This document shows positions 33,504-47,237 of a DNA stretch of 64,000 nt, piece by piece. The position numbers and the translations under genes were made by a program. The stretch lies in NCBI GenBank assembly GCA_947085505.1, contig CAMTWI010000004.1:129800-193799 (forward strand). Direction: 5' to 3'. Positions within the stretch are counted from its first letter, which is position 1. The number at the start of each line of letters is the position of its first letter. This DNA is from an uncultured bacterium (lineage in GTDB: Bacteria; Patescibacteriota; Minisyncoccia; Phycocordibacterales; Phycocordibacteraceae). The notes under the pieces were generated by a model. The model had not been told where the DNA came from, searched no databases, and saw nothing but the letters and a program-made list of their open reading frames with translations.

Positions 33504-33543
33504 AGGAGTGAGTGTTTCCATGCTATAAAAAGGCTACTAAAGT

Positions 33544-34695
33544 ATGAAGATTGTATTTACTGGCGGGGGAACAGGCGGGCATTTCTATCCGCTGATTGCT
33601 ATTGCGGAGTCTTTGCACGACCTTGTTCAGGAACGGAAGTTGCTCCCACCGCAACTCTACTACTTGGCGGACAAACCATATGACGAGGAGGCACTCTTCG
33701 CCAACGATATCGTCTTTCTGAAGGCTCCTGCCGGAAAGGTTCGTCGCTACTTCTCACTATCAAATGTAACTGATGTCTTTGTTACGGCATGGGGGCTCGT
33801 TACTTCATTCTTCATACTCCTTAAGCTCTATCCGGACGTTATTATCTCGAAGGGCGGGTACGCGAGCGTCCCAACGGTCCTCGCAGCCTCTTTCCTTGGT
33901 ATCCCGATTATCGTGCACGAATCAGACGCAAAGCCTGGACGTGCGAACCTACTTGGTGCCAAGCATGCGACACGTATTGCCGTTGCATTTGAAAGCGCTA
34001 TCGAAGGATTCCCAGCAAAGCTCCGGAACAAAGTAGCGAAGGTTGGTATTCCTGTCCGTAAGGAACTTCTTACTCTGCCGCCACGGATAGACGCGGTTAC
34101 TGCACTGAATCTCGATCCTTCTATCCCTACGGTTTTCATCATTGGCGGATCCTCTGGCTCTCTTCGTATTAACGAAACCGTACTTGATGCGCTTCCAAAC
34201 CTCGTGTCATTTGCAAACGTGATACACCAAACAGGTAAGGACCACTTCGACAACATCATGAAGACCGGGAACGTTATTATTGAAAAGAGCGGGCACGAAG
34301 CGAGGTACCACCCGTACCCTTATATGAACGCAGAAACGATGCGCAGAGCAGCCGCAGCAGCAGACGTCATTATTACGCGTGCTGGAACCGGCTCCATAAC
34401 GGAGATCTCTCTTTGGGGTGTACCGTCTATCTTGATTCCGATTCCTGAAGCTATAAGCCACGACCAACGCACCAACGCGTATGCGTATGCGCGCACCGGT
34501 GCAGCGGTAGTGCTTGAAGAGGCGAACCTTACGCCACACGTTCTCGCTTCAGAAGCGCAGCGTATAGGAACTGATTCTGTGGTTGCAAGCCGCATGCGCG
34601 AAGCTGCAAAGGGGTTTGCGAACCCGCTTGCTGGACGCCTTCTCGCGGAAGAAGCTCTTCGCATTGGTCTTTCACACCAAGGGAAGAACGGCTAA
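33544..34695 (+). CDS. murG: UDP-N-acetylglucosamine--N-acetylmuramyl-(pentapeptide) pyrophosphoryl-undecaprenol N-acetylglucosamine transferase
   Basis: GGGTGGHFYPLIA N-terminal loop; GT28 two-domain size. Confidence 0.9.
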   Translation: MKIVFTGGGTGGHFYPLIAIAESLHDLVQERKLLPPQLYYLADKPYDEEALFANDIVFLKAPAGKVRRYFSLSNVTDVFVTAWGLVTSFFILLKLYPDVIISKGGYASVPTVLAASFLGIPIIVHESDAKPGRANLLGAKHATRIAVAFESAIEGFPAKLRNKVAKVGIPVRKELLTLPPRIDAVTALNLDPSIPTVFIIGGSSGSLRINETVLDALPNLVSFANVIHQTGKDHFDNIMKTGNVIIEKSGHEARYHPYPYMNAETMRRAAAAADVIITRAGTGSITEISLWGVPSILIPIPEAISHDQRTNAYAYARTGAAVVLEEANLTPHVLASEAQRIGTDSVVASRMREAAKGFANPLAGRLLAEEALRIGLSHQGKNG

Positions 34696-34704
34696 GCTCT
34701 CTCT

Positions 34705-36138
34705 ATGACCGTCCGTACCCGATTCGCCCCCAGCCCCACTGGCTTTCTGCATGTAGGAGGCGCCCGCACGGCGCTCTATGCGTGGCTGTATGCAAGAAGG
34801 CACAACGGCACGTTCATTCTTCGTATCGAAGACACCGACAAGGGGAGGGAAGTTGAGGGTGCAATCGGGCACATGATGGAATCCTTGAAGTGGCTGGGTA
34901 TTCGGTGGGACGAGAGTATTGATATTGGTGGACCCTATGGGCCGTATATTCAATCCGCTCGATTGGATTCCTATCATACATACGCACGCAGACTCATCGA
35001 TGCCGGATTCGCCTACCCGGATCCCTACACCGAGGAGGAGGTTGAAGTGTTCCGAAAGACTGCTGAAGCAGAGAAGCGTCCGTTCCTGTTCCGCGACCAT
35101 CGACCAGAGACTGTTTCCGCTTGGAACGGCTCACAGCCGCTTCGTTTCAAAGTTCCAACGATTAAGCGATTTGAATGGGAGGACGCAGTTATGGGAACCC
35201 TGTCCGCAGGTGAGGAAGCGCTTGACGATTTCATACTTATCAAAGGCGACGGCTACCCAACCTACAACTTCGCACACATCATTGACGACATAGAAATGAA
35301 AGTTACGCATGTAATGCGAGGTCAAGAGTTTGTCTCGTCTACACCAAAGTTTCTTTCTCTCTATGAGGCCTTGAACGAAGTGCCACCCGTATTCGTGACG
35401 CTTCCGCCCATTCTTGGCGACGGCGGAAACAAGAAGCTCTCGAAGCGTGACGGTGCGAAAGATATTCTGGACTATCGTCGTGAAGGGTATCTGCCAGAAA
35501 CGCTTGTTAACTTCCTCGCACTCCTTGGTTGGAGCCCGGGCGGGGACCAGGAGTTCTTCACACCCTATGGCCTTATCGAAGCGTTCGATATCTCGCGCAT
35601 TCAGCGCTCGGGTGCGCAGTTCGACGAAGACAAACTAAAGCATTTGAACCGCGAGCACATGAGGCTTCTTTCAGACCAGGAGTATGTATCGCGCGGAGAG
35701 CTCAACGCTACGGATGATACACGTCTGTTTAAAGCGGTACCGCTTCTTAAGGAACGAGCCTACACATTCTCTGAGGCTAGAGACATGCTTAAGGGGGAGC
35801 TTTCTTGTTTATTTTCAACCCCAAAATTATCCGTAGAGGGCCTCAAAGCGAAGGAGCCAGCAGAGCGCGCGGGCCTTACAAAAGAGGCTCTGGAGGGCAT
35901 TTTGGGGCTTTTGGAAGGTCTTCCAGCGATGCTTCCGGCAGAAGCCGTTAAGATGGCGCTTATGCCATTTGCGGATAGTCAGGAGGCTCTCATAAAGGGA
36001 GGAAGGGGAGCAGTTCTATGGCCTACACGCTATGCACTTTCCGGCGCTGAGCGGTCTCCAGACCCATTCACCCTTATTTCCATTTTAGGCACAGAGGAGG
36101 CATCTTCCCGTATTCGGGCCGCACTTGCTATACTCTAG
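34705..36138 (+). CDS. gltX: glutamate--tRNA ligase
   Basis: RFAPSPTGFLHVGGARTAL (HIGH) and KLSKRDG (KMSKS). Confidence 0.93.
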   Translation: MTVRTRFAPSPTGFLHVGGARTALYAWLYARRHNGTFILRIEDTDKGREVEGAIGHMMESLKWLGIRWDESIDIGGPYGPYIQSARLDSYHTYARRLIDAGFAYPDPYTEEEVEVFRKTAEAEKRPFLFRDHRPETVSAWNGSQPLRFKVPTIKRFEWEDAVMGTLSAGEEALDDFILIKGDGYPTYNFAHIIDDIEMKVTHVMRGQEFVSSTPKFLSLYEALNEVPPVFVTLPPILGDGGNKKLSKRDGAKDILDYRREGYLPETLVNFLALLGWSPGGDQEFFTPYGLIEAFDISRIQRSGAQFDEDKLKHLNREHMRLLSDQEYVSRGELNATDDTRLFKAVPLLKERAYTFSEARDMLKGELSCLFSTPKLSVEGLKAKEPAERAGLTKEALEGILGLLEGLPAMLPAEAVKMALMPFADSQEALIKGGRGAVLWPTRYALSGAERSPDPFTLISILGTEEASSRIRAALAIL

Positions 36139-36141
36139 GGG

Positions 36142-37509
36142 ATGCAGATCCTACGCTCCTTAGTACTCGCCTTTTCTTTCCTTACCGCTTTCTCGCTTAT
36201 TGGCGCGATTGTACCGAGCGACGTACGTGCCCAGACTGAGGAACAGATTAAGAGCCAGATAAACGAACATGCCCAGCGCATCAAAGATCTCGAAAAGGAG
36301 ATCGCTGAGGCGGAGCGGCAGCGCACAATCCTGAACGGACAATCTCAGACGCTTCAAACCGCAATTAAATCGATTGATATCACCCGTAGGCAGACAACCT
36401 CGCAAATCGATCTAACGCAGAACAGAATTTCATCAACGAACCTAAAGCTCGAGGAACTTTCCTACAATATTCAAGACACCGAGCAGCTCATAGCGCTCGA
36501 CAAACGCACCATAGAGCAGTCCATTCGCAATATGGCAGAAGCTGCTGACGTCTCACTCGTTGAACAGGTGTTCGCCGCAGGTAACTTAACCGAAGCGTGG
36601 ACAGCCGTTGATGACGCAGCCTCACTCAATTCTGCACTTCGCGCGAATCTTGCAAATCTTGCAAAAGCAAAAGACGAACTTTCAAACCAGAAGCAGGACG
36701 TTGACGCAAAGAAGAACGAACTTACCTCACTCGCTACTGACCTTTCAACGCAAAAGCGTTCCTTGGACATTGCCAAGAGCGAGAAGGATAGACTCCTCGC
36801 GCAAACAAAGAATCAGGAGAGTGCATACCAGAATCTCATAGCAAAGAAGCAGGCAGAGAGGAGGATCTTTGAGCAAGCACTCTCAAGCCTTGAGAACAGT
36901 CTCACGTCTGTGGGACAGGGAGCGGCACCGGCGTCCCAGACCGGTGTGCTCGCATGGCCGTACTCCTCAACCTTTGCACAGAGTTGCGCAGGGAAGGCTG
37001 GCGCACTCGGGAACTCACGCTGCATAACGCAGTATTTCGGGAACACGGCGTTCGCAACCGCAAACTCGCAGATCTATAATGGCTCTGGACACAATGCCAT
37101 CGATATTGGCATGCCCGTTGGTACGCCGGTCCTTGCCGCACTCTCCGGAACCGTTGCAGGCACAGGGAACACCGACTCGGTTCCTGGTTGCTACTCTTTT
37201 GGGAAGTGGGTAGCGATAAAGCACGCGAACGGCCTTACAACCTCCTATTCGCATCTCTCTTCGATTTCAGTGTCAGCGGGCCAGACCGTTACCACCGGTC
37301 AGGTTATCGGAAATTCCGGTATGACTGGGTACGCAACTGGTCCACACCTCCATTTCAGCGTGTACGCGTCAGCTGGCTTCAAGATTATGGATCTTGGAAA
37401 CTGGAGAAGGCAGCAAGGACTTCCAACCGGGACTGGGTGTACTGCGGGAGGTGCCATTATGCCGGTTGCACCGCTTGATGCGTATTTGAATCCGATGTCA
37501 TATTTGTAA
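36142..37509 (+). CDS. M23 family peptidase with an N-terminal coiled coil (EnvC-like)
   Basis: Signal/TM segment, ~250-aa coiled coil, then M23 motifs GHNAIDIG and GPHLHFSV. Confidence 0.85.
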   Translation: MQILRSLVLAFSFLTAFSLIGAIVPSDVRAQTEEQIKSQINEHAQRIKDLEKEIAEAERQRTILNGQSQTLQTAIKSIDITRRQTTSQIDLTQNRISSTNLKLEELSYNIQDTEQLIALDKRTIEQSIRNMAEAADVSLVEQVFAAGNLTEAWTAVDDAASLNSALRANLANLAKAKDELSNQKQDVDAKKNELTSLATDLSTQKRSLDIAKSEKDRLLAQTKNQESAYQNLIAKKQAERRIFEQALSSLENSLTSVGQGAAPASQTGVLAWPYSSTFAQSCAGKAGALGNSRCITQYFGNTAFATANSQIYNGSGHNAIDIGMPVGTPVLAALSGTVAGTGNTDSVPGCYSFGKWVAIKHANGLTTSYSHLSSISVSAGQTVTTGQVIGNSGMTGYATGPHLHFSVYASAGFKIMDLGNWRRQQGLPTGTGCTAGGAIMPVAPLDAYLNPMSYL

Positions 37510-37534
37510 GTTCGATACCTAGTCTGCCAGCAAT
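37510..37534 (+). repeat. box copy R0, truncated (right part only)
   Basis: GTTCGATACCTAGTCTGCCAGCAAT starts directly after the M23 stop codon. It matches the box ends GTTC...CTGCCAGCAAT. Confidence 0.6.
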
Positions 37535-37602
37535 TCTTTTAAACCCCTATTGGGTGTAGTATTTAGATTAGAAGGCTGTTTGGGCCACAAGGAGAACTCA
37601 AG

Positions 37603-37851
37603 ATGTTTGATCCTCTTTTAGGCATGTCTGAAGAAGAGTACGAGGCAGAGCTGGTGCGTATGGCTGAGCAGAGCGACAATCCGAGCGCGAAGCGGTGGCT
37701 AGAATGCAGGAATGCGCCACCCCTCACTCTGAAGCAGACTGAGGAGATTCTCGTGCGAATGTCCGAGTACAACCCGGATGCGCCCGAGATACTTCGCAAA
37801 TTTCGACTCAAGCATGCGGACGAACTTGGAAGTGACGAGGCGGCTCCGTGA
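37603..37851 (+). CDS. cassette gene P1, hypothetical 82-aa acidic protein
   Basis: AAGGAG SD 8 nt upstream of the ATG; a hairpin spans the stop codon. Confidence 0.55.
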   Translation: MFDPLLGMSEEEYEAELVRMAEQSDNPSAKRWLECRNAPPLTLKQTEEILVRMSEYNPDAPEILRKFRLKHADELGSDEAAP

Positions 37852-37872
37852 GCCGCCTCAAAACTTTATATA

Positions 37873-37903
37873 GGTTCCAACATCGTCCCAGACTGCCAGC
37901 AAT
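37873..37903 (+). repeat. box copy R1 (consensus)
   Basis: GGTTCCAACATCGTCCCAGACTGCCAGCAAT. Confidence 0.9.
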
Positions 37904-37906
37904 GTT

Positions 37907-37915
37907 TGATAGAAT
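37907..37915 (+). promoter_or_regulatory. extended -10 promoter, leaderless P2
   Basis: TGaTAGAAT, then 6 nt to the ATG at 37922; begins 4 nt after box R1. Confidence 0.5.
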
Positions 37916-37921
37916 CTTGAT

Positions 37922-38359
37922 ATGGATGAACTCCTCGAACTCTTCCCGAAGGCTGTCGCATGGGCAGAGGACCATTCCGCTCAAATCCTGAAAGAGGGGA
38001 GATCGTTAACAGTAGAGGAGATGGAAGCGGCTAGGAGAGTGGGTGTCCAGCACCCAGAGAGCGTGCGCATCTCTGAAGTAACTGAACTCCCTAAGCCTGA
38101 GGACGAAGAGCTGCGAGCGGCAGCTCTCTCAATCGGCTTGCTTGGACCAACGATGATCGGGCTCACGCTTGGGTATGGCATCTATCTTGTACGTGGAAAT
38201 GAGACGAGGTTTATACCCCATGAGCTACGGCACGTGTATCAGTTTGAGCGCTTAGGATCGATTTCAAACTTTCTAACTGTTTATCTGCAGGAACTCCAGA
38301 AATTTGGTTACGCGAATGCGCCTCTTGAAGTGGATGCATCAAGGTACGAGCCTGTGTAA
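37922..38359 (+). CDS. cassette gene P2, HExxH-motif protein (putative zinc metallopeptidase-like)
   Basis: 145 aa with GYGIYLVRGNETRFIPHELRHVYQFERLG. The HELRH motif and its context recall DUF4157-type domains (from memory, not searched). Confidence 0.55.
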   Translation: MDELLELFPKAVAWAEDHSAQILKEGRSLTVEEMEAARRVGVQHPESVRISEVTELPKPEDEELRAAALSIGLLGPTMIGLTLGYGIYLVRGNETRFIPHELRHVYQFERLGSISNFLTVYLQELQKFGYANAPLEVDASRYEPV

Positions 38360-38362
38360 GTA

Positions 38363-38393
38363 GGTTTCAACATAGTCCCAGACAGCCAGCAAC
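38363..38393 (+). repeat. box copy R2 (4 mismatches)
   Basis: GGTTTCAACATAGTCCCAGACAGCCAGCAAC. Confidence 0.8.
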
Positions 38394-38445
38394 AAATAAC
38401 AAAAGCCGCCCAACAAAGTCGAACGACTTCTGTAGGCGGCAGCGG

Positions 38446-38841
38446 CTAGAACCGATATGAGGTTTGCTCGAGCCCGACCTTCTTTTCGGCGGGCCTCTTG
38501 CCGTAGCCGAGACCGAACATCAGAAGGAAGGCGGCCCCGCAGATCGCCAGGGAGCCGGCATTCAGCTGAAGCGCGAGGAGGGCCGGCGTTTCGTCTTCCA
38601 TGGCAGTCCTCAGGGTGAGGACGGGTAAGAGACCGAATACCAGTCCCAGCACACCGCCTTTCGAGCGTTGAAAGCCCGCATACCAGACCAGCAGGGTCCA
38701 GAGCAGCACGAGCACAAAGAAGATGGGTGTGAAGGACCAGGCGGCGATTGGCTCGGCCACGGGCGGATAGAACCCGAGGAAGAGTCCGGACAGCAGCATG
38801 AGAAGCGGCATCCAGATCATGAAGCTACTTTTGACGTACAT
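38446..38841 (-). CDS. cassette gene P3, small membrane protein
   Basis: Start at MYVKSSFMIW with a GGGAGA SD; 4 hydrophobic helices. The track N-terminal extension reads through the repeat and is discarded. Confidence 0.55.
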   Translation of the reverse strand: MYVKSSFMIWMPLLMLLSGLFLGFYPPVAEPIAAWSFTPIFFVLVLLWTLLVWYAGFQRSKGGVLGLVFGLLPVLTLRTAMEDETPALLALQLNAGSLAICGAAFLLMFGLGYGKRPAEKKVGLEQTSYRF

Positions 38842-38934
38842 TGCGTTTCTCCCGCAAGTTGTTTCCTTTGTGAATATATATTTAAATCTAGAAAAGTAAA
38901 GATGCTTCGGTATGTGTCTCTTATAGAGGCATGT

Positions 38935-38975
38935 GTTGCAGAAAGGTTCCAACATCGTCCCAGACTGGCAGCAAT
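38935..38975 (+). repeat. box copy R3 with GTTGCAGAAA extension
   Basis: GTTGCAGAAA + GGTTCCAACATCGTCCCAGACTGGCAGCAAT (1 mismatch). Confidence 0.9.
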
Positions 38976-38977
38976 AC

Positions 38978-39006
38978 ATAAAGCGAAAGAGGCACCGAAG
39001 TGCCCC
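38978..39006 (-). terminator. intrinsic terminator of P4
   Basis: On the minus strand: GGGGCAC-TTCG-GTGCCTC followed by TTTCGCTTTAT. Confidence 0.7.
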
Positions 39007-39008
39007 TG

Positions 39009-39230
39009 TCAGAGAATTAATATCTCCCTCTCTCGTAGACCGGCTTCGGTCTGATTGATGGGTTGCAGTGTGCTGCCTGCGTCTCTCTCCTGCAAAAGCA
39101 GGGAATACAGATCAAGTGCGGCACGAACGGTTGAACTTTTTGATTCAGCGTTTGTATCGACTTGAATCCTTTCAATACGCTGCATGTCCTTCTCAGAGAG
39201 GACAAGCTGCAGGCGCGCTGTCAGAGCCAT
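39009..39230 (-). CDS. cassette gene P4, ribbon-helix-helix (CopG/Arc-like) DNA-binding protein
   Basis: 73 aa. N-terminal beta-strand-like LQLVLSEKDMQRIERI followed by STVRAALDLY helices. AGGAGG SD. Confidence 0.6.
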   Translation of the reverse strand: MALTARLQLVLSEKDMQRIERIQVDTNAESKSSTVRAALDLYSLLLQERDAGSTLQPINQTEAGLREREILIL

Positions 39231-39249
39231 GAGTTCCTCCTGAAAATAC

Positions 39250-39311
39250 TCTAGACAGAACGTACCATATGTTGCAGAAAGGGTCCAACATCGTCCCAGA
39301 CTGCCAGCAAT
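39250..39311 (+). repeat. box copy R4 with full promoter module
   Basis: TCTAGACAGAACGTACCATATGTTGCAGAAAGGGTCCAACATCGTCCCAGACTGCCAGCAAT. On the minus strand this reads TTGGAC, 18 nt spacer, TGgTACGTT. Confidence 0.9.
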
Positions 39312-39344
39312 AGAAATACTCCCCACCTTTCGATGGGAAGTATT
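39312..39344 (-). terminator. intrinsic terminator of P5
   Basis: On the minus strand: AATACTTCCCA...TGGGGAGTATT followed by TCTATT. Confidence 0.6.
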
Positions 39345-39374
39345 ATGGCAACACTGACTTGATGAAGTGGCGAG

Positions 39375-39872
39375 TTAAGCGTCAGATGTGCTGATTCGCT
39401 CTCCAAAGTCCCAGTTGAACTTCGATCTTCTAAAGCGGCCCTTGCCGATACTGAACATAAAGCTCGGCCGCGTGAAGACTTTCAAGTCGGTCTCTACAGC
39501 ATCAGGAATGCACTGGTAGTAGAACATGAGCCTGTGCGGCTCTCTGTGCCGGTCAACCGAAAGGCACAACATGAGCGCGTCGCCAGTGCCGCTTCGAATC
39601 GTCAGCTGCAGCTTATACGAACGCCGCCACACGTCTTCGGAAACTTCTGATAGCAAGTATCTTTTCCGATTGTTCATTGCTTCCTCGACTTCTTCATGTG
39701 GAAATGAAACTGTCGAGTAATCGTAGGTAGTTTTATCCTCACAGGTAAGGACTTCGATCTGAGCGCCCGGGACGTACTGTTGAACAAGTGTAGAGAGTCG
39801 GCGTGCTGACTCCAGGAACTCGTTGAGTCCAATAGCCAGTAGTAAACGGTTATCGCGACTGAATCTAGACAC
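39375..39872 (-). CDS. cassette gene P5, hypothetical 165-aa protein
   Basis: GTG start with an ACGGAGA SD; no motif recognised. Confidence 0.5.
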   Translation of the reverse strand: MSRFSRDNRLLLAIGLNEFLESARRLSTLVQQYVPGAQIEVLTCEDKTTYDYSTVSFPHEEVEEAMNNRKRYLLSEVSEDVWRRSYKLQLTIRSGTGDALMLCLSVDRHREPHRLMFYYQCIPDAVETDLKVFTRPSFMFSIGKGRFRRSKFNWDFGERISTSDA

Positions 39873-39903
39873 TATTATTCTCCGTGTTGGTACAAAACCT
39901 TTA

Positions 39904-39934
39904 TATATAATAGTTCATTATTGACATTTGTCAA
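39904..39934 (-). promoter_or_regulatory. P5-specific promoter with a palindromic -35
   Basis: On the minus strand: TTGACAAATGTCAA (perfect palindrome containing TTGACA), then an AT-rich -10 (ATTATA/TATATA) 17-19 nt downstream. Confidence 0.5.
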
Positions 39935-39950
39935 ACATAAGCCGTAGAAA

Positions 39951-39981
39951 GGTTCCAACATCGTCCCAGACTGGCAGCAAT
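39951..39981 (+). repeat. box copy R5
   Basis: GGTTCCAACATCGTCCCAGACTGGCAGCAAT (1 mismatch, same variant as R3). Confidence 0.9.
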
Positions 39982-40021
39982 AAAATAGGAAAACCGCGTG
40001 AACGGAATTCCGTTACGCGGT
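39982..40021 (-). terminator. intrinsic terminator of P6
   Basis: On the minus strand: ACCGCGTAACGGAATTCCGTTCACGCGGT followed by TTTCCTATTTT. Confidence 0.75.
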
Positions 40022-40030
40022 AACAAGCTA

Positions 40031-40444
40031 TTAAGGGTGGTACGACCTCCATAACTTCCTCCACGGTTGGTAGAGCAGAAATATAATCACACCAACCAGC
40101 GCCGAATTCGCCCCGAGTAGGAAGAAGTAGGCGAACCAACAACACTCCTTGGCGTAAAAGTAACGGGGAAGTTTGTAGTAGCACCTGACAAGGCTCGGGT
40201 CAGGGGCACCGGAGGCGCGAAGAGCCTCTGCTTCCCTCATGTATTCAGCAATCGTTGCGTGCATAAAGGTAAAGAAAACCGCCGCAACGCCGATGTATTC
40301 AATTCCGCCCTTTCGTGTGACGAGTGCCACAGCGATAAGGACGCTGAGTACAACCCCGCCCTCGACCTGATATGTACGGCACCCGAAAGCCCTTTTGATC
40401 TTTTCGACCAAGAAGACGGGTACGTATGCCAATGATCTTGCCAC
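40031..40444 (-). CDS. cassette gene P6, small membrane protein
   Basis: GTG start 5 nt after AAGGAGG; 137 aa with 3-4 hydrophobic helices. Confidence 0.55.
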   Translation of the reverse strand: MARSLAYVPVFLVEKIKRAFGCRTYQVEGGVVLSVLIAVALVTRKGGIEYIGVAAVFFTFMHATIAEYMREAEALRASGAPDPSLVRCYYKLPRYFYAKECCWFAYFFLLGANSALVGVIIFLLYQPWRKLWRSYHP

Positions 40445-40461
40445 AATGGCCTCCTTGTTTA

Positions 40462-40523
40462 TCTAGACAGAACGTAGCATACGTTGCAGAAAGGTTCCAA
40501 CATCGTCCCAGACAGCCAGCTAT
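40462..40523 (+). repeat. box copy R6 with full promoter module
   Basis: TCTAGACAGAACGTAGCATACGTTGCAGAAAGGTTCCAACATCGTCCCAGACAGCCAGCTAT. On the minus strand this reads TTGGAA, 18 nt spacer, TGcTACGTT. AACGTA-GCA-TACGTT is a perfect palindrome. Confidence 0.9.
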
Positions 40524-40562
40524 ACAAAGCAGAAGAGGAGACCCGCTCATGGGTCTCCTCTT
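40524..40562 (-). terminator. terminator-like hairpin overlapping the P7 stop
   Basis: AAGAGGAGACCC / GGGTCTCCTCTT stem; CTGCTTTGTATA follows on the minus strand. Confidence 0.5.
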
Positions 40563-40921
40563 GATTTCTTGCGCTTAAGTCTGCGCGCAGCATTTCGCTT
40601 TTGTCGTTCAAGCTGTGGGCGTAAGTACTCAAACTTTCCAAGATGCATGAAGCCGCTGTACGTTCCGATTAGTGGGTGCGGCCAAAGTCCACACTCACGA
40701 ACCATTTGCTCAGTGGCAATGACCTTCGGAAACTCACCGTGCCAGGTTAATGAAGGCCGGCGATGTGCTCGTTCTGGTGGCGTACATTCGGAACAAAGAG
40801 CCGTTACTTTCGAATGATCCTTCACGAGAAGTCCATAGAACTTACCGGTCGATTTCAGGAACGATGTTCCTAATGCAGTGTTCTCTATACCACTGCACTC
40901 ATCACAAATGAAAAGTGGCAT
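40547..40921 (-). CDS. cassette gene P7, CxxC...CxxC zinc-ribbon-like protein with a basic tail
   Basis: 124 aa; CDEC and CSEC pairs; C-terminal RQKRNAARRLKRKKSR; GGGAGA SD. Confidence 0.55.
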   Translation of the reverse strand: MPLFICDECSGIENTALGTSFLKSTGKFYGLLVKDHSKVTALCSECTPPERAHRRPSLTWHGEFPKVIATEQMVRECGLWPHPLIGTYSGFMHLGKFEYLRPQLERQKRNAARRLKRKKSRGDP

Positions 40922-40937
40922 TGATGTTCTCCCTGTA

Positions 40938-40975
40938 TCTAGACAGAACCTACCACGTGTTGCAGAAGGGTTCCA
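40938..40975 (+). repeat. box copy R7, truncated (promoter module plus first 7 nt of the box)
   Basis: TCTAGACAGAACCTACCACGTGTTGCAGAAGGGTTCCA ends 3 nt before the alkA stop codon. On the minus strand it reads CTGGAA, 18 nt spacer, TGgTAGGTT. Confidence 0.8.
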
Positions 40976-40978
40976 GCT

Positions 40979-41620
40979 TTAAGCGTCCCGGACACGCCAC
41001 AACACCTTTGACGCAAACGTCCGATGCGGAGACCACCGGAGAGCAATAACTTCGAGCTCCTGTACGGCAACATCTTTAGGTAATCCATAGAGACTCTCCA
41101 TAGAACGCCTTAGTCCTAAATCTCCCAGAGAGAACACATCCTCTCGTTCAAGTGCGAACATAAGAAACATTTCCGCAGTCCAGCGGCCAATACCCCACAC
41201 CGAAGAAAGTCTTGTTATGGCTTCTTTCTCAGGAATCTTCCGGAGTGCGGGCAAATCAAGTTCTCCCTTAAGCACCGCTTTCGACAATTCCTTAAGAGTC
41301 TTTGATTTAGCTGCAGAGAGCCCGGCCTTACGCATCGTTGGCAGACGGAGCTTTTGAATAGCTTCGGGTGTAACCTCTCCCTTACACGCAACAACGAGCC
41401 GTTCCCATATAGTGTCGGCGGCTTTCGTTGAGAGTTGTTGGCCCGTTACGCTCGCTGCAAGAGAGGAGAAGAGCTTCTGTCCGGAGTAGCGTCGTTGCGC
41501 CGTGGAGCGGGGAACGAAGTGATCCTTTAGAGGCAGCGCCGCTCTATGTAGTATTGGGTCCGCTTTCTTCAGATGAAGAAGGGCAGCCGCTACGTGCACA
41601 TCGTGCTTCTTTGAAGGCAT
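40979..41620 (-). CDS. alkA: DNA-3-methyladenine glycosylase II family (HhH-GPD)
   Basis: HhH-GPD region SSVWGIGRWTAEMFLMFALEREDVFSLGDLGL. Start at MPSKKHD after TATACT-N7. Confidence 0.8.
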   Translation of the reverse strand: MPSKKHDVHVAAALLHLKKADPILHRAALPLKDHFVPRSTAQRRYSGQKLFSSLAASVTGQQLSTKAADTIWERLVVACKGEVTPEAIQKLRLPTMRKAGLSAAKSKTLKELSKAVLKGELDLPALRKIPEKEAITRLSSVWGIGRWTAEMFLMFALEREDVFSLGDLGLRRSMESLYGLPKDVAVQELEVIALRWSPHRTFASKVLWRVRDA

Positions 41621-41642
41621 CGAGACTAGTATACTGGAGGCA

Positions 41643-41840
41643 ATGGTACGATTCATCATCCTCATAATCATATTGATCCTTGCGCTGTCTTATTTCGGCA
41701 TTTCGATTCGCGATATAGCACAATCGCCAACAGGAGAAGATAACTTCACCTTTGTCTGGAACTACGTGAAGGACGGGTGGGAGATCATAACTGCCATTCT
41801 CGCTGGTCTTATCGAGGCCGTTCGAAACGTATTCTCATAA
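41643..41840 (+). CDS. small membrane protein
   Basis: 65 aa with an N-terminal TM helix (FIILIIILILALSYF). Divergent from alkA, with which it shares the palindromic AGTATACT. Confidence 0.45.
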   Translation: MVRFIILIIILILALSYFGISIRDIAQSPTGEDNFTFVWNYVKDGWEIITAILAGLIEAVRNVFS

Positions 41841-41851
41841 TCCTCATACCT

Positions 41852-42097
41852 ATGGAAAAGAAACAAATTGCTATCTCAGCCGCACCGAACACGAACGCAA
41901 CCTTCGTAAACGCTACGCAAGTAACCGTCTCAGACGATGCGGTCATCATTCAGTTCGCCTATGTACGGCCAAACACAGAGGTTGGGCAGCTTATTTCTGA
42001 GATTGTGCTCTCGCCAAAGCACGCCATAGAGTTCAGCAAAGCGCTCGACAACACCATAAAGCAACACTTCACCAGACATCTCGAGGTAGGGGAGTAA
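41852..42097 (+). CDS. small hypothetical protein (DUF3467-like by recollection)
   Basis: 81 aa from MEKKQIAIS. The pattern VTVSDDAVIIQFAYV...VLSPKHAIEFSKALDNTIKQH resembles DUF3467; this was not searched. Confidence 0.5.
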   Translation: MEKKQIAISAAPNTNATFVNATQVTVSDDAVIIQFAYVRPNTEVGQLISEIVLSPKHAIEFSKALDNTIKQHFTRHLEVGE

Positions 42098-42191
42098 CAT
42101 GAACGCTTCATGCCGACTTCATGATGCTGCGCGTAGTATTCACACATGGTTAGTAGCAAGTACTAACGATTAATTAACCTATTGTATTGCT

Positions 42192-42425
42192 ATGAAGAAA
42201 CTACTACTCGGATCGCTCGCGCTTGCAGCAGTTGTCGCCATCCCTGGCGTATCATTCGCAGCGACCTACGCATACGTAAACACTGCAGGAGAAGTTATGA
42301 CGATGGAAGCTTCAAACGCGTCTACCGCCATTGCTACCGCTCCTGGTATTCACCCACGCAGCGGTGTTCTGCTCATCCAGTCAACCAGCGACCCTATTGT
42401 TGGAGACACGGTGCAGGTTCGGTAA
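42192..42425 (+). CDS. small secreted protein
   Basis: Signal peptide MKKLLLGSLALAAVVAIPGVSFA; 77 aa. Confidence 0.55.
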   Translation: MKKLLLGSLALAAVVAIPGVSFAATYAYVNTAGEVMTMEASNASTAIATAPGIHPRSGVLLIQSTSDPIVGDTVQVR

Positions 42426-42568
42426 GACACCACTCGTCTTATACGTCTTAACTCCTGAAGCATTGTGCCTCAGGAGTTTTGCGTTCTCAACTTCATGAAG
42501 CATATTCCTCTTCATATTTCTTTCCGTGCTACGGTTTTAAGACTAACTTTGCATCTAGATCCTTACGT

Positions 42569-43660
42569 ATGACATACACCCCATTAAAGACACTAAGCAT
42601 ATTAGCCATTATGGCACTCGCGTTTATCCCGTTCACTGCGTCAGCAGCAAGCTCAAGAGTATCCTGCGAACTCACCGTTACAACGTCCTTTGACGACGCA
42701 TCCTTTAAGAAGAAAGGGAAGATCCTTGTGCAGAAGGGCGACGAGGTTACTATTGCGTGGGAAGGAAAGAATGCCACGAAGGTTATTGATCGAGACAAAG
42801 ACGAGGTGCATCTCAAAGACTCGATAACCGTTACTCCAGACAAAGACGAGACATACTCCTTCCAATTTACCGACAATAGAAGGAAGACAGACTGTTCAGT
42901 TGAACTCGTTGTTGTTGATGCCCTAATAGACGAAGACACTCTCCAAACAGGCAAAGCAAAGCCGACCATTTCAGGTGAGGCTATAGGTGCTAAATCTGTA
43001 TACCTCCTTATTACAGACGAGAACAGAAAGACTGCATTCAAAAGTAGAAACATCCGCACAAAAGATGGCGATTGGATGACGCATGTTACTAAAAGCCTCA
43101 AGGACGGGTCCTATGACGTGACGCTCTTTGGGGATAAGCGTGCCAACATAAACATCATCGCTACGAGCACGCTCGTTATTGGAGATGGCTCAACCTCTGC
43201 AAGCAACTCTTCAACCAAGAAGGGAGGCATGCTTGCTATTAGCCCAATAGCACTTCTCTCAGGAGGAAACGCGGTCCCTGGCGCATCAGTTCCCGTGGTC
43301 TACATTAAGGTAGCGAATCCAGGAAAGGATGCCGCCTCTATTGATGGGTTCACCCTGAAGCAAAACGGTTCTGCTTCCACCAACGCGATACTGAGCTTCT
43401 CAACTAATGACGACAAGAGCGGTTCTCGCTTCACAACGTCTGGAGCAGGTCTCTTCAAGAATGGTCATACGTTCGTAGGTCTTCCGGCTACTATCCCCCC
43501 GGGCCAGTTCCGCATCTTCACGATTAAGGCCAACTTGAACTCGACAAGCGGTATATCCGCGGGACAGACGCTCATGCTTGATGTTGCCTCAGTTACCTCT
43601 GGTGCAGCACTTGGCGGTTCGTTCCCAATTAAGGGAGTGACGTGGACCCTCACAAACTAA
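42569..43660 (+). CDS. secreted beta-rich hypothetical protein
   Basis: Start at MTYTPLKTLSILAIMALAFIPFTASA (signal peptide); Ig-like beta-rich composition. Confidence 0.6.
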   Translation: MTYTPLKTLSILAIMALAFIPFTASAASSRVSCELTVTTSFDDASFKKKGKILVQKGDEVTIAWEGKNATKVIDRDKDEVHLKDSITVTPDKDETYSFQFTDNRRKTDCSVELVVVDALIDEDTLQTGKAKPTISGEAIGAKSVYLLITDENRKTAFKSRNIRTKDGDWMTHVTKSLKDGSYDVTLFGDKRANINIIATSTLVIGDGSTSASNSSTKKGGMLAISPIALLSGGNAVPGASVPVVYIKVANPGKDAASIDGFTLKQNGSASTNAILSFSTNDDKSGSRFTTSGAGLFKNGHTFVGLPATIPPGQFRIFTIKANLNSTSGISAGQTLMLDVASVTSGAALGGSFPIKGVTWTLTN

Positions 43661-43725
43661 ACACACTGTAGAAGGAATAAAGGGGGCTACTGCCTCCTTT
43701 TTTCTTTTACTGTAGAATTGAGTAA

Positions 43726-44574
43726 ATGGAGACCCAGATACTGCTTTTCTATAAATATGTAACCGTTGAGGACCCCGAGACCCTCGCGTCATGGCTACGC
43801 ACTCGCTGTTCTGAGCATAATCTCGTTGGACGTATTCTCGTGGCGGAGGAGGGTCTAAACGGCACTGTAGAGGGCACCGTTGAGAACACGGAGAGATTCG
43901 CTCACGAGCTTGTTAAAGACGCACGATTCAGCGACATGAAGGTAAAGCGGAGTGTAGGCACTGGGAAAGGATTCCCGAAGCTTTCTGTTAAAGTCCGAAA
44001 GGAAATTGTCGGGACACAGTTCCCAGCAACGGTTGATCCCCGAGTTCGTACGGCTACGCACCTTGCTCCCGAGGAACTTCGACGGTGGTACGAAGAGGGG
44101 AAGGACTTCGTTATCGTCGACATGCGTAATGATTACGAATTCCAGTCAGGGCACTTCAAGGACTCTATTAATCCAGGACTTGAGAATTCCCGCGATCTCC
44201 CGAAGGCGCTTCCTAAGCTCGAAGGACTCAAAGAGAAGACCGTCCTTACGGTGTGCACCGGCGGCGTACGCTGCGAGAAAATGTCAGCCCTTCTTCTTGA
44301 GAATGGCTTTTCTGACGTATACCAGCTTGATAACGGGATACACGGGTACATGGAGAAGTACCCTGGGCAGGATTTTGTTGGGGGACTTTATACGTTTGAT
44401 GATCGTAAGGTCATGCACTTTGGCGGAGACCGGGAGATCGTTGGGCGGTGCCATTTCTGCCAGGCTCCAACGGAGAAATACGTAAACTGTGCCAACGATT
44501 TCTGCCACCTCCATTTCCTTGTTTGTGAGGGCTGCAGCAGCTCACGGAGCGTATTCTGCTCCAGGGTCTGCTAA
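43726..44574 (+). CDS. trhO: rhodanese-domain protein of the UPF0176/TrhO (YceA) family
   Basis: N-terminal ILLFYKY, rhodanese active-site loop CTGGVRCEK, C-terminal Cys cluster. Confidence 0.8.
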   Translation: METQILLFYKYVTVEDPETLASWLRTRCSEHNLVGRILVAEEGLNGTVEGTVENTERFAHELVKDARFSDMKVKRSVGTGKGFPKLSVKVRKEIVGTQFPATVDPRVRTATHLAPEELRRWYEEGKDFVIVDMRNDYEFQSGHFKDSINPGLENSRDLPKALPKLEGLKEKTVLTVCTGGVRCEKMSALLLENGFSDVYQLDNGIHGYMEKYPGQDFVGGLYTFDDRKVMHFGGDREIVGRCHFCQAPTEKYVNCANDFCHLHFLVCEGCSSSRSVFCSRVC

Positions 44575-44615
44575 CCACATGCAATCTTCATGAAGTTCAT
44601 GCGTATACTGTACGT

Positions 44616-44939
44616 ATGATACTTTCACTAATTCTTGGTTTTCTTTTGGGTGTTGCAGCACTTTTATTCGCTCTTCAGAACACCGCTGTTGTTGAACTCT
44701 CGTTTATGGGGTGGCAGTTCGAAAGCTCGCTTGCGCTCCTTATCCTTATGGCATTCGCTGCCGGAATTGTGGTGAGTCTCCTTGTCTCTATTCCTTCTGC
44801 AGTTAAGGACAGCTTCCGCATTGGCGGCTTGAAGAAGGAGAATAAGAAGCTTGTTAACGAAGTAAATGAGTCTCGCCGTGTGAGTCAGGCTGTTGCGGAC
44901 GATGCCATTCCACAGGTGCTCGATATTCGTAACCCCTAA
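44616..44939 (+). CDS. LapA-domain (DUF1049-like) membrane protein
   Basis: Two TM helices followed by a charged coiled tail. TATACT-N6-ATG. Confidence 0.6.
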
Positions 44940-45427
44940 TGGAAAAGAAAGCATATCTCGCGGGAGGATGCTTCTGGGGACTAGAGGAGCTCTTTCGGGA
45001 GCAAGAGGGAGTTCTTAGTATTGAAGCCGGGTATACCGGCGGCGAGAATGAGAACCCTACCTACGAAAATCATCCTGGACATGCTGAGGCACTTGAAATA
45101 ACCTACGACTCTGAGAAGACGTCGTTCAAGAAAATCCTCGACTTCTTCTTTCAGATTCATAACCCAACGACCTTGAATCGACAAGGGAATGATGTGGGGT
45201 CCTCATACCGTTCTGCGATCTTCTATCAAGACGAAGAAGAGCGGAAAGAGGGCCAGGACTTCATACGTCTTGTTAATGAGTCCGGACGATGGGGTGACCC
45301 TGTCGTTACGACCTTAGAGCCGTTTACTCAGTTCTATAGAGCAGAAGAGGAACATCAAGACTATCTTCAAAAGAACCCAGGCGGCTATACCTGCCATGCT
45401 ATCTATTTCGATAGCTACCTGGGGTAA
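44939..45427 (+). CDS. msrA: peptide-methionine (S)-S-oxide reductase
   Basis: GGCFWGLEE active-site motif; 162 aa. Confidence 0.93.
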
Positions 45428-45436
45428 CATATATCT

Positions 45437-46000
45437 ATGAAAGCAAACTTAATTCTCGCCGTGCTTGTGATCGCTGCTATTGGCGCTGCTCTCTGGTTTA
45501 TGACCAAATCTGAGAAGCAGGCAGTAGTAATTAACGATTCTGAAATCCGTTCCTTTGCTGACTGTGCCGCGGTATATCCTGTAATGGAGAGCTACCCTCG
45601 CCAGTGCAAGACCAATGATGGCCGTACCTATGCGGAAGAGCTGCCACCGCCGGATCCAACGTATGTGAACGCGTCAGCTGACCTGATCCGTGTTACTACC
45701 CCAACACCAGCGTCTGTAACAGGGAAGCCAATTATCGTAAAGGGTGAGGCTCGTGGCAGTTGGTACTTCGAAGCATCCTTCCCGATTGAAGTACGTGACA
45801 GTGCAGGCTCAGTTATCGCAACCGGATACGCTCAGGCGCAAGGGGAGTGGATGACGTCTGAGTTTGTGCCGTTCGTAGGAACCATTCAAATTCCAGAGAC
45901 GTACATCGGTGAAGCCGTCCTCGTCTTTATGAATGACAACCCGTCTGGCATGGCAGAGAACGCTCGCTCAGTTTCATTTCCCATTACTATTGAGTACTAA
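45437..46000 (+). CDS. membrane-anchored protein with a Gmad2-like Ig domain
   Basis: N-terminal TM helix. C-terminal VKGEARGSWYFEASFPIEVRD...GEWMTSEFVPF pattern. Confidence 0.6.
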   Translation: MKANLILAVLVIAAIGAALWFMTKSEKQAVVINDSEIRSFADCAAVYPVMESYPRQCKTNDGRTYAEELPPPDPTYVNASADLIRVTTPTPASVTGKPIIVKGEARGSWYFEASFPIEVRDSAGSVIATGYAQAQGEWMTSEFVPFVGTIQIPETYIGEAVLVFMNDNPSGMAENARSVSFPITIEY

Positions 46001-46007
46001 CTCATAA

Positions 46008-46056
46008 AAGAAAGCAGAAGCCGCCGCAACCAACACGGGTGCGGCGGCTGTCTTTC
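46008..46056. terminator. bidirectional terminator
   Basis: AGAAGCCGCCGCA...TGCGGCGGCTGTCT flanked by A-rich and T-rich runs. Confidence 0.65.
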
Positions 46057-46061
46057 TGATG

Positions 46062-46385
46062 CTATGCGAATCGATCGGCAGCTGAAAATATCTCCTCAAC
46101 GGTTGATCTATACCCGCCGTACTGAATCGCAAGGGCAACTGCAGCCACATTGTTCGAGACCCCAAGCTTTGAAAGCAGTCTGCGAATTTGGGTTCTCACG
46201 GTCTCAACCGAGCTACCTTTCTTCGTAGCAATTCCTTCAGCGGTTAGGCCGTGACACATAAACGCTAGGACTATGCGCTCATGTGGAGTAAGTGATTCGA
46301 GTCCGTCTTGTGTCCGCCCTTTGAGTTCAAGACACGTAGCTTCTGGAAAAAGGTTGTCGATAACAATACTGGCACTGGCACGCAT
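46062..46385 (-). CDS. LuxR/GerE-type HTH transcriptional regulator (no receiver domain)
   Basis: Start at MRASASIV. C-terminal LTPHERIVLAFMCHGLTAEGIATKKGSSVETVRTQIRRLLSKLGV. Confidence 0.7.
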   Translation of the reverse strand: MRASASIVIDNLFPEATCLELKGRTQDGLESLTPHERIVLAFMCHGLTAEGIATKKGSSVETVRTQIRRLLSKLGVSNNVAAVALAIQYGGYRSTVEEIFSAADRFA

Positions 46386-47233: not shown

Positions 47234-47237
47234 ATAC

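Follow-up and report, generated by a model that had tools for sequence, protein, structure and literature searches.

The repeated box at 37510-41004 of the analysed DNA is most likely the attachment site of small mobile one-gene cassettes, derived from the end of a tRNA-Gln gene and stacked in hypervariable arrays in many ultra-small bacteria of the Patescibacteria. The arrangement resembles an integron-style gene-capture system of which no published description was found. The DNA, referred to here as the window, is a stretch of 64,000 nucleotides (64 kb) from a Paceibacterota (Parcubacteria, Patescibacteria) bacterium, and loci from other genomes that were compared with it are designated by the letter L and a number. 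In the window, six near-identical boxes, one decayed copy (R7) and an eighth site of a different type (R0) bound seven one-gene units, most of which have a terminator of their own.

The box array in the window

The repeated boxes described in the initial annotation are real. Six full copies, R1 to R6, lie on the minus strand at 37873-37902, 38363-38392, 38945-38974, 39281-39310, 39951-39980 and 40493-40522 (as annotated features they extend to 37903, 38393, 38975, 39311, 39981 and 40523, respectively), and a 19-mer core gives 6 matches where 0.01 are expected. R2 is the most diverged of the full copies, with 3 substitutions. The decayed seventh copy, R7 (GTTGTGGCGTGTCCGGGACGCTTAAAGCTGGAACCC, about 40966-41004, minus strand), overlaps the last codons and the stop codon of the distal flanking gene, which encodes an alkA-like HhH-GPD glycosylase (40979-41671, minus strand). 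At the other end, the array is closed by R0 (ATTGCTGGCAGACTAGGTATCGAAC, 37510-37534, minus strand), which was missed in the initial annotation and lies directly after the stop codon of a convergent gene encoding an M23 peptidase (36142-37509, plus strand). R0 is a stand-alone copy of the T-loop, acceptor and trailer of tRNA-Gln in reverse complement, which it matches at 22 of 25 positions.

Between these sites, two cassettes on the plus strand, antisense to the boxes, had also been overlooked. The first, between R1 and R0, carries an ORF of 82 aa (37603-37851), and the second an ORF of 145 aa (37922-38359), with an outward TGaTAGAAT -10-like element abutting R1; neither has a family hit. The remaining cassette ORFs are on the minus strand. 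P3 (38446-38841) is a hydrophobic ORF of 131 aa with its own TTTACT-16-TATATT promoter-like site at 38873-38900. P4 (39009-39230) is an ORF of 73 aa, which had been taken for an RHH protein, an assignment that is not supported, as sequence searches returned neither an RHH nor any other family hit. P5 (39375-39872) is an ORF of 165 aa with its own TTGACA-16-TATTAT promoter-like site at 39907-39934, and P6 (40031-40444) is an ORF of 137 aa with no family hit. P7 (40547-40921) is an ORF of 124 aa with two CxxC motifs. With regard to termination, hairpin plus T-tract terminators precede the boxes: a terminator scan found three of them, assigned to P3 (38399-38433), P4 (38988-39007) and P7 (40533-40562), and folding revealed the other two, after P5 (39315-39347) and P6 (39993-40021), all on the minus strand.

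A promoter-like module, TGCAAC-N-TGnTA(C/G)GTTCTGTCTAGA, follows the box only after R4, R6 and R7, at 39250-39276, 40462-40488 and 40938-40964 of the minus strand. The -10-like nonamers within it are TGGTACGTT at 39259-39267, TGCTACGTT at 40471-40479 and TGGTAGGTT at 40947-40955, so that the coordinates given for them in the initial annotation were 2 nt too high. The other elements described there were confirmed: the palindrome TTGACAAATGTCAA lies at 39921-39934, the R6 palindrome AACGTA-TGC-TACGTT is present, R3 keeps the module up to GCAAC (it is followed only by TTTCTGCAAC), and R5 diverges after TTTCT. Notwithstanding, a simple sigma-70 scanner did not call the module as a promoter, since it matches only 7 of 12 hexamer positions plus TG and falls below the threshold of the scanner.

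Distribution and extent of the site

The conserved sequence upstream of the putative -35 element, considered in the initial annotation as an activator or repressor site of about 23 nt, is the core of a longer site of ~35 bp, (A)TTGCTGG-NN-GTCTGGGACGATGTTGGAACC-YTTNT, in which conservation runs from -9 to +25 around the core with two variable positions. The 21-mer core occurs in more than 118 stretches of species-representative genomes, and nearly all of these are Patescibacteria MAGs, often with 2-7 copies per 8 kb on one strand. Several loci can lie 100-300 kb apart on a single contig. Box-to-box spacing is 309-1957 bp, and the cassette ORFs are found in either orientation, with 33 co-oriented and 33 antisense to the boxes. 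Most of the 63 cassette proteins examined have no Pfam family, while the rest are NUDIX, alpha/beta hydrolase, GNAT, HAD, PIG-L, CutA1 and cupin enzymes.

The arrays are polar. Out of 61 arrays, 32 have an R0-type site within 2.5 kb on the downstream side, against 1 of 61 on the upstream side, and 15 of the other 29 have a more diverged tRNA-3'-end-like site on the downstream side. In eight loci (L003, L026, L033, L039, L046, L047, L099 and L037) the R0-type site is the 3' end of a tRNA-Gln gene called by ARAGORN, whereas in the window and most other loci only a 25-nt fragment of the tRNA-Gln end is present. Such stand-alone R0 sites next to protein genes are not explained by simple integration into a tRNA gene. 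The box itself aligns to the 3' end of tRNA-Gln plus trailer with one 5-nt gap, and only 2 of 5000 shuffles score as well.

Turnover of the cassettes

The content of the arrays varies strongly between relatives. L017, from a close relative whose flanks are 92-96% identical to those of the window, holds between alkA and the M23 peptidase gene only P7 (96% aa identity) and a unit of ~130 nt, where the window holds seven cassettes; the one shared cassette is that farthest from R0. Furthermore, about 30 pairs of orthologous loci with flanks 67-88% identical share no cassette and differ in cassette number. That the units are independent is indicated by P5, of which a homologue with 47% identity sits in a different box-flanked cassette of a related genome (L082). 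Nevertheless, neither an excised circle nor an empty/filled pair at single-site resolution was seen.

No tyrosine or serine recombinase is present in the 64-kb window. A search with an HMM built from Xer proteins, together with phmmer searches with XerD, IntI1 and lambda Int, found nothing in the window and only a housekeeping-type Xer, in L016, among about 96 CPR loci; this was likewise the only recombinase found beside about 60 arrays.

Promoter or recombination site

The interpretation offered in the initial annotation, in which a shared promoter with a regulator-binding site implies coordinated control or module-wise acquisition, is supported only in part. Module-wise acquisition is supported, as the units are discrete, hypervariable between relatives and bounded by the box. 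The reading of TTGGAA or TTGGAC, an 18-nt spacer and TGnTA(C/G)GTT as a promoter of the extended -10 type is plausible from sequence alone, and the arrangement fits that type at R4, R6 and R7. The same 58-nt module occurs at 30 of 150 boxes in other genomes, at fixed length and in the same register, and in the listed copies an SD-like purine run and a start codon usually follow it. However, its best-conserved part, GTTCTGTCYAG, lies downstream of the -10, which a promoter alone does not explain. After R4, CTGTCTAGA sits at the predicted transcription start.

In contrast, the idea that the upstream 23 nt serve as an activator or repressor site for coordinated control is not supported. This sequence is the invariant core of a site that is present whatever the orientation of the flanking genes, that lacks the -10 part in 80% of copies, that is derived from the 3' end of tRNA-Gln, and that sits in polar arrays ending at a tRNA-type site, which is the anatomy of a recombination (att) site and not of an operator.

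A probable integron-like cassette array

The best explanation, held with moderate confidence, is that 37510-41004 is an integron-like array of seven one-gene mobile cassettes, each carrying a box that is a diverged copy of the T-loop, acceptor stem and trailer of tRNA-Gln, read on the antisense strand, and that the array is anchored at one end on R0, a site that still looks like the tRNA-Gln 3' end. In this view, a site-specific recombinase encoded elsewhere, most likely a tyrosine integrase, would recombine the box of a circular cassette with R0 or with another box. Strand exchange is inferred to fall in or left of the 8 bp that the two site types share, ATTGCTGG, although the sequence to the left of ATTGCTGG is not conserved and the box has no dyad symmetry of the kind that core-type recombinase sites usually show. 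With regard to the crossover position, the dinucleotide in R0 (CA or GA) is not shared with the boxes of its own array: only 27 of 132 are equal, and GA is seen in 14 of 48 R0 sites but in 2 of 132 boxes. New cassettes would then enter next to R0 and push older ones outwards, an insertion order that rests on a single close comparison, that with L017.

Most cassettes in the window are self-contained transcription units with their own terminator. In P4, P6 and P7 the putative promoter would use TTGGAA inside the box as -35 and TGnTA(C/G)GTT, 18 nt downstream, as an extended -10, and because both elements lie in the same mobile unit, the promoter would travel with the gene. The analysis establishes the site and its relationship to tRNA-Gln, the polarity and hypervariability of the arrays, their spread in Patescibacteria and the absence of a linked recombinase, whereas site-specific recombination in trans, the position of the crossover, the order of insertion and the activity of the promoter are inferences.

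A broader reading, which remains possible but tentative, is that Patescibacteria (CPR) possess their own gene-capture system, functionally equivalent to integrons but of independent origin. It would consist of a phylum-wide shared pool of one-gene cassettes, each with a double-stranded att site of ~35 bp that evolved from the tRNA-Gln 3' end and often with a portable promoter whose -35 lies inside that site. The cassettes would be inserted at tRNA-Gln-type anchors by a chromosomally encoded recombinase acting in trans, possibly the only tyrosine recombinase of the host, and this would be a main route of accessory-gene flux in these reduced genomes.

Patescibacteria make up a large share of bacterial diversity and have tiny genomes, few recognised mobile elements and mostly unknown accessory genes. 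A conserved, easily searchable 35-bp site marking hypervariable one-gene cassettes would give a direct handle on their flexible gene pool and on gene flow between lineages, and would point to a site-specific recombination system that is missing from current surveys of integrons and mobile elements. It would also explain assembly breaks in their MAGs, as short-read contigs of this organism end at the boxes, and would offer a natural docking site and a portable promoter for genetics in the few cultivable members. Additionally, it would be an independent example of the integron strategy, built from a tRNA-targeting att site instead of folded attC hairpins.

Alternative explanations

The alternative that survives best, although unlikely, is that the arrays are scars of serial integration and imprecise excision of larger elements that carry their own integrase and target tRNA-Gln, such as prophages or tycheposon-like islands, each event leaving one att copy and a piece of cargo, so that the cassettes would not move on their own. 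Repeated partial tRNA 3' ends downstream of a tRNA gene are the classic trace of tandem integration, newer elements pushing older ones outward has been described for Prochlorococcus islands (bioRxiv 10.1101/2020.12.28.424599), and the absence of an integrase near the arrays would then reflect decay. However, the units are uniformly tiny (0.3-2 kb), carry one or two small ORFs and, in the window, mostly have a promoter-like site and a terminator. The box core is invariant across about 150 copies rather than decaying, no phage, replication or integrase remnants were seen among the 63 cassette ORFs or the flanks, and no box or tRNA-Gln-type attP was found in IMG/VR viral contigs. Moreover, the box differs from the host tRNA-Gln end by a fixed 5-6-nt indel, so it is not simply a displaced tRNA end.

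It is also unlikely that cassettes are exchanged by homologous recombination after natural transformation, with the identical 35-60-bp boxes acting only as homology anchors, or as an uptake or self-recognition signal, and without a dedicated recombinase. The lack of a linked recombinase and the near-identical boxes that flank every cassette would fit this reading. Cultivated Saccharibacteria are naturally transformable; a paper on this subject has been published (PMC10633639). The variable dinucleotide is partly genome-specific, with 53% identity within genomes against 26% between them, as expected from concerted evolution. Nonetheless, homology alone does not explain why the 21-nt core is invariant across lineages whose flanking genes are only 65-75% identical, why the arrays are polar and end in a tRNA-Gln-type site, or why the R0 and box dinucleotides stay distinct within one array, and about 35 bp is near the lower limit for RecA-dependent exchange.

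A primarily regulatory role, in which the 62-nt unit is a shared promoter plus regulator-binding module that puts unrelated genes under common control, appears less likely still. Apart from the promoter-like arrangement at R4, R6 and R7 and at 30 boxes elsewhere, an inverted repeat, GTCTGGGAC ... GTCYAGAC, brackets the putative promoter, and the palindrome GTCTAGAC sits at the predicted start, as an operator pair would. This reading is weakened by the 80% of boxes that lack the -10 part, by the simple scanner, which does not score the module as a promoter, by the tRNA origin and polar, hypervariable setting of the box, and by the genes flanking it, which lie in all four orientation combinations, most often both antisense.

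That the boxes are dif-like Xer sites, and the array a stack of IMEX-like or dif-module elements at the chromosome terminus, is very unlikely. The cumulative GC skew peaks around 30-48 kb, so the array lies in the terminus region of this window, no recombinase is present in cis, as with pdif modules and IMEXs, and a box abuts the xer stop codon in L016 and L165, as does an R0-type site in L163. However, 77 of 80 xer loci have no box or R0-type site directly after xer, and boxes occur at several loci per contig rather than at a single terminal site. Inverted 11-bp arms around a 6-8-bp spacer, as in the 28-31-bp Xer/dif sites, are lacking (the best arm symmetry is 5-6 of 9-11 positions), the site is tRNA-derived, and the window has no convincing canonical dif either. 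Xer as the trans-acting enzyme is not excluded.

A classical integron or CALIN whose attC sites act as folded single-stranded hairpins is largely refuted by folding: although GTTGGAA or GTTGGAC resembles the GTTRRRY core, the sites show a strand bias relative to replication, and the full 58-nt module is an imperfect inverted repeat with a bulged G, 92% paired at the correct register, the box alone does not fold, folds of the box with its flanks are dominated by the terminator hairpins, the full modules of the window fold no better than shuffles (z between -0.5 and +0.2), and 80% of sites lack the second arm.

Relationship to known systems

Integrons, including CALINs, the clusters of attC sites lacking an integrase (Cury 2016; Neron 2022, PMC9024848), share with these loci polar arrays of short cassettes, usually with a single ORF, each bounded by a copy of one recombination site, with one distinct anchor site at one end, content that varies greatly between close relatives, and a cargo of mostly ORFans and small accessory enzymes. 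As in CALINs, the arrays have no adjacent integrase. The site, however, is an asymmetric sequence of ~35 bp derived from tRNA-Gln and not a 57-141-nt imperfect palindrome recombined as a folded single strand, no IntI, the tyrosine recombinase that complete integrons carry next to attI, was found, and there is no Pc promoter at the anchor. Integron cassettes are mostly promoterless and co-oriented and are expressed from Pc, whereas the cassettes here bring their own promoter-like sites and terminators and lie in either orientation. The host clade, Patescibacteria, is not mentioned in the text of the IntegronFinder 2.0 survey.

Tandem integrative elements at tRNA genes, such as the tycheposon-shaped islands of Prochlorococcus, as well as CIMEs and other integrase-less hitchers, have att repeats that are partial tRNA 3' ends and integrate repeatedly at one tRNA, with older units pushed outward and some units that lack an integrase and would depend on one supplied in trans. 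Such elements encode an integrase, usually next to the tRNA-proximal junction. In the arrays examined here, the units are 0.3-2 kb with one or two small ORFs and no integrase or replication module. The repeated site is not an exact partial tRNA but a fixed derivative conserved across many Patescibacteria lineages, and arrays also sit at stand-alone tRNA-Gln-end fragments next to protein genes.

The pdif (Xer) modules of Acinetobacter plasmids and IMEX elements are likewise small gene modules bounded by short recombination sites with the recombinase encoded elsewhere in the genome, but the present sites have no XerC/XerD-type dyad, are direct and not alternating inverted repeats, and are chromosomal, at many loci and tRNA-derived. 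Phage morons, which are autonomous promoter-gene-terminator units, resemble most genes in the window in the possession of a promoter-like site and an intrinsic terminator, yet morons are not bounded by a conserved att-like repeat and do not form arrays at tRNA ends. Finally, the box does not correspond to a REP/BIME or MITE, being asymmetric and having ORFs between its copies.

Organisation of the array

Read on the minus strand, the region begins with the gene of the alkA-like glycosylase (HhH-GPD, 40979-41671), whose stop codon is overlapped by a decayed copy of the box, R7. Five co-oriented small ORFs follow, P7, P6, P5, P4 and P3, each of them preceded by a box (R7, R6, R5, R4 and R3 in turn), and R2 follows P3. 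Two ORFs on the opposite strand come next, one of 145 aa (37922-38359) and one of 82 aa (37603-37851), with R1 lying between them. A site of a different type, R0 (37510-37534), abuts the stop codon of a convergent M23 peptidase gene (36142-37509). The six full boxes are highly significant, since a 19-mer core gives 6 matches where 0.01 are expected and the copies are 84-100% identical over 37 nt. No other copy of any of the three site types was found in the window.

What the initial annotation had observed in the sequence holds, with one correction, namely that the three -10-like nonamers lie 2 nt lower than it had placed them. Hairpin plus T-tract terminators precede R2-R6. None of the seven ORFs has a Pfam or NCBIfam family, and the assignment of P4 as an RHH protein, proposed in the same annotation, is not supported. 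P7 (40547-40921), the only cassette conserved in a close relative, has two CxxC pairs (CDEC...CSEC), which suggests a small zinc-binding fold.

Distribution and extent of the box

The box is not special to this locus. An exact scan of one genome per species with the 21-mer GTCTGGGACKATGTTGRAMCC returned at least 118 stretches, about three quarters of which are MAGs labelled by their depositors as Paceibacterota/Parcubacteria, Saccharibacteria, Kaiser-, Nomura-, Adler- or Berkelbacteria, or "Patescibacteria group". Since exact matches were required, both the copy numbers and the taxonomic range are lower bounds. Copies often number 2-7 per 8 kb on one strand and occur at several places on the same contig, for example at 32-40 kb and 128-144 kb of LFCR01000004.1. 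In 150 Patescibacteria copies, conservation extends from -9 to +25 around the 21-mer, so that the site reads (A)TTGCTGG, two variable bases, the invariant core and then YTTNT. A typical box was also present on a 2.8-kb contig binned as Chitinophagaceae (JAOQAL010000695.1, locus L044), but this bin comes from the same study as several Parcubacteria MAGs and the contig is probably mis-binned, so it is not evidence for the site outside Patescibacteria.

The rest of the genome hits, mostly from alphaproteobacteria (loci L004, L013, L019, L023 and others), and all 34 IMG/VR hits (L120-L153) fall inside one highly conserved cytosine-5 DNA methyltransferase gene, in which the 21-mer encodes VWDDVGT and the identical 21-24-mer GTCTGGGACGATGTTGGAACCTT encodes ...VVWDDVGTFDGRPWRG...GYPCQ. 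The gene occurs in many Rhodobacterales and related genomes and on IMG/VR viral contigs. Although the identity is striking, it is treated here as probably a single chance match multiplied by a widespread mobile gene. In a search for a phage or plasmid attP, three scans of IMG/VR, for the box core, for the tRNA-Gln end and for the left part of the box, returned only chance coding matches, the methyltransferase gene among them.

Exact-protein look-ups of P4-P7, intended to recover strain variants, gave only contigs of about 1 kb that end at the boxes. Two short-read contigs of the same organism, of 986 nt (L001) and 1029 nt (L234), from the Logan assemblies ERR3478706 and ERR3478703, start and end at the boxes. 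The repeats therefore break assemblies, and arrays in MAGs are probably under-recovered.

Relation of the box to promoters

Genes next to the box lie in all four orientation combinations, the commonest being both antisense, at 41 of about 150. Only 30 of 150 boxes carry the downstream module TGCAAY-N-TGnTAGGTTCTGTCYAGA, while eleven others are followed by TTGACW-N15-19-TAnnnT promoter-like sequences and some have an outward TGGTACACT-type -10 on the other side. The box therefore sits between transcription units and borders cassette promoters, but does not define them. The initial annotation had read the repeats as promoter modules built on the box, implying coordinated control or module-wise acquisition, an interpretation that is only partly supported.

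The best-conserved part of the module, in the window and in 30 modules of other loci, is GTTCTGTCYAG, which lies downstream of the -10-like hexamer (TCTAGAC at 39250-39257, 40462-40469 and 40938-40945 in the window). With the neighbouring bases it resembles a tRNA T-arm (CTAG-GTTCTGT-CTAG) in the sense orientation, inverted relative to the box. It also places the palindrome GTCTAGAC at the predicted transcription start, which would lie about 7 nt after TA(C/G)GTT, near CTGTCTAGA. An ECF-sigma reading of the module (GGAAC...CGTT) was rejected because the spacing, at 19 nt, is too long.

Polarity of the arrays and relationship to tRNA-Gln

The R0 site of the window, ATTGCTGGCAGACTAGGTATCGAAC, recurs 49 times in the fetched loci, and boxes almost always lie on one side of it. 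An R0-type site is present within 2.5 kb downstream in 32 of 61 arrays, against 1 of 61 upstream, and 15 of the other 29 arrays have a more diverged tRNA-3'-end-like site there. In seven of the loci (L003, L026, L033, L039, L046, L047 and L099) the site is exactly the T-loop and acceptor end of an ARAGORN-called tRNA-Gln(UUG), and in L037 it is that of a tRNA-Gln(CUG). Elsewhere, including in the window, it is a stand-alone 25-nt fragment. In L003 (6285-6600) the tRNA-Gln 3' region appears three times around a run of N, which may represent either tandem partial tRNA-Gln copies or an assembly or scaffolding artefact at the array anchor.

The box aligns with the reverse complement of the tRNA-Gln end plus its CAAT trailer, with one 5-nt gap, and only 2 of 5000 shuffles score as well. 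The box is therefore a fixed derivative of the tRNA-Gln attachment sequence. This also explains the strand bias, whereby the box lies on the strand with negative GC skew in 71 of 98 loci and opposite to most genes in 71 of 96, since it is antisense to a tRNA gene and tRNA genes usually follow the direction of replication. A model in which the site would serve in tRNA-primed (PBS-like) reverse transcription was rejected, as the box is not kept complementary to tRNA-Gln and half of the ORFs are antisense.

Turnover and content of the units

The units behave as mobile cassettes when related loci are compared. L017, a locus from a Paceibacterota MAG, is 92% identical to the window over alkA and P7 and 96% identical over the M23 end, yet between the box after P7 and R0 it has only a ~130-nt unit, where the window has six more cassettes. 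The shared cassette is the one farthest from R0. About 30 pairs of orthologous loci have R0-side flanks that are 67-88% identical and nevertheless share no cassette, and they also differ in cassette number, for example 2 against 4, 2 against 7 and 7 against 3. Moreover, a 47%-identical homologue of P5 lies in another cassette with diverged boxes, on a different contig of the L017 genome.

Box-to-box spacing is 309-1957 bp, and the orientation of the ORFs, for which the gene calls in the loci are heuristic, is 33 co-oriented to 33 antisense. Most of the 63 cassette proteins have no Pfam family, the others being small enzymes, namely NUDIX, alpha/beta hydrolases, GNAT, HAD, histidine phosphatase, PIG-L, CutA1, nucleoside deoxyribosyltransferase and cupin. 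One protein matches a PADLOC model. This profile resembles the cargo of chromosomal integrons.

Inferred mechanism of exchange

R0 and the box share ATTGCTGG and then diverge, and the two variable bases that follow stay with their own site type. R0 has CA or GA, while the boxes of the same arrays have CA, GG or CT. Only 27 of 132 are equal, and GA occurs in 14 of 48 R0 sites but in 2 of 132 boxes. In one genome all 10 boxes have GG, while the R0 sites of its arrays have CA. If R0 and the boxes recombine, the exchange must therefore lie in or to the left of ATTGCTGG, a 7-8-bp stretch, which is the usual size of a tyrosine-recombinase overlap region. An attempt to map the crossover from the ends of homology was uninformative because the box is shared by every unit.

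On this model a cassette would consist of NN-GTCTGGGACGATGTTGGAACC, then the promoter, the gene and the terminator, and finally ATTGCTGG, so that the -35 inside the box and the -10 after it would belong to the same mobile unit. Insertion at R0 would place the newest cassette next to R0, which is consistent with the single close comparison, that with L017. While the sites, the polarity of the arrays and the differences between related loci were observed directly in the sequences, promoter activity, recombination, the crossover position and the order of insertion are inferences.

Search for a recombinase

No tyrosine or serine recombinase is encoded in the 64-kb window or in the fetched flanks of about 60 arrays, usually a few kb on either side, with the exception of one housekeeping-type Xer whose stop codon abuts a box in L016. 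Clustering of 630 ORFs from 96 loci, Pfam annotation of 80 large ORFs beside the biggest arrays, and phmmer or HMM searches with XerD, IntI1, lambda Int, gamma-delta resolvase and Hin found nothing recurrent.

Among 80 metagenomic loci encoding orthologues of the L016 Xer, two have boxes nearby, in one of them directly after xer, and one has a lone R0-type site between xer and xth. L016 (4168-5142) and L165 (around 4888-5530) have a box abutting or just after the xer stop codon, whereas L163 (4918-4938) has the lone R0-type site with no cassette, which is a possible empty anchor. Taken together, the spacer between xer and the exonuclease III gene xth looks like one more insertion hot spot, and not like a xer/site module. 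The enzyme must act in trans, or the exchange is homology-driven.

Alternative readings and comparison with known systems

A regulatory role is not excluded. The 58-nt full module is an imperfect inverted repeat, GTCT(G)GGAC...GGAACC // GGTTC..GTCYAGAC, which is 92% paired at the correct register. It brackets the putative promoter and places the palindrome GTCTAGAC at the predicted transcription start. Regulation by a protein that binds both half-sites, perhaps the recombinase itself, remains possible.

A dif/Xer site was considered because the array lies in the region where cumulative GC skew peaks. It was rejected as the nature of the site since boxes lie at many loci per contig, the box has no dyad, and only 3 of 80 xer loci have a box or R0-type site directly after xer. 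A classical folded attC site fares no better despite the inverted repeat, as the box does not fold, folding of the boxes with their flanks and of the full modules, on both strands, gave only the terminator hairpins and no stable site structure, the window's copies of the module fold no better than shuffles, and most sites lack the second arm of the inverted repeat.

Functionally the arrays resemble an integron or CALIN, whereas their ancestry is that of tandem integration at tRNA genes, as in the Prochlorococcus islands shaped by tycheposons. They fail the defining tests for an integron, having neither folded attC sites nor IntI, and those for self-sufficient tRNA-targeting elements, in that no integrase is present in the loci examined. 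Full-text searches for the sequence itself and on CPR, integrons, cassettes, genomic islands and tRNA-Gln, covering open-access papers and bioRxiv only, found no description of such a system.

Wider features of the window

GC skew in the window (1-64000) is positive up to about 30 kb and negative from about 48 kb, with cumulative maxima at about 31-33 kb and 39-40 kb. The window therefore probably contains the replication terminus, with the switch around 30000-48000, and the cassette array lies in that zone, although no convincing canonical dif site was found in the window. Next to the tRNA-His gene at 14625-14699, a stretch of low G+C (14000-20000; 0.43-0.44, against about 0.51 elsewhere) holds four ORFs without any Pfam family, a formyltransferase-domain protein and a histidine-kinase-type ATPase. 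It contains no boxes and no integrase, and may be a separate island.
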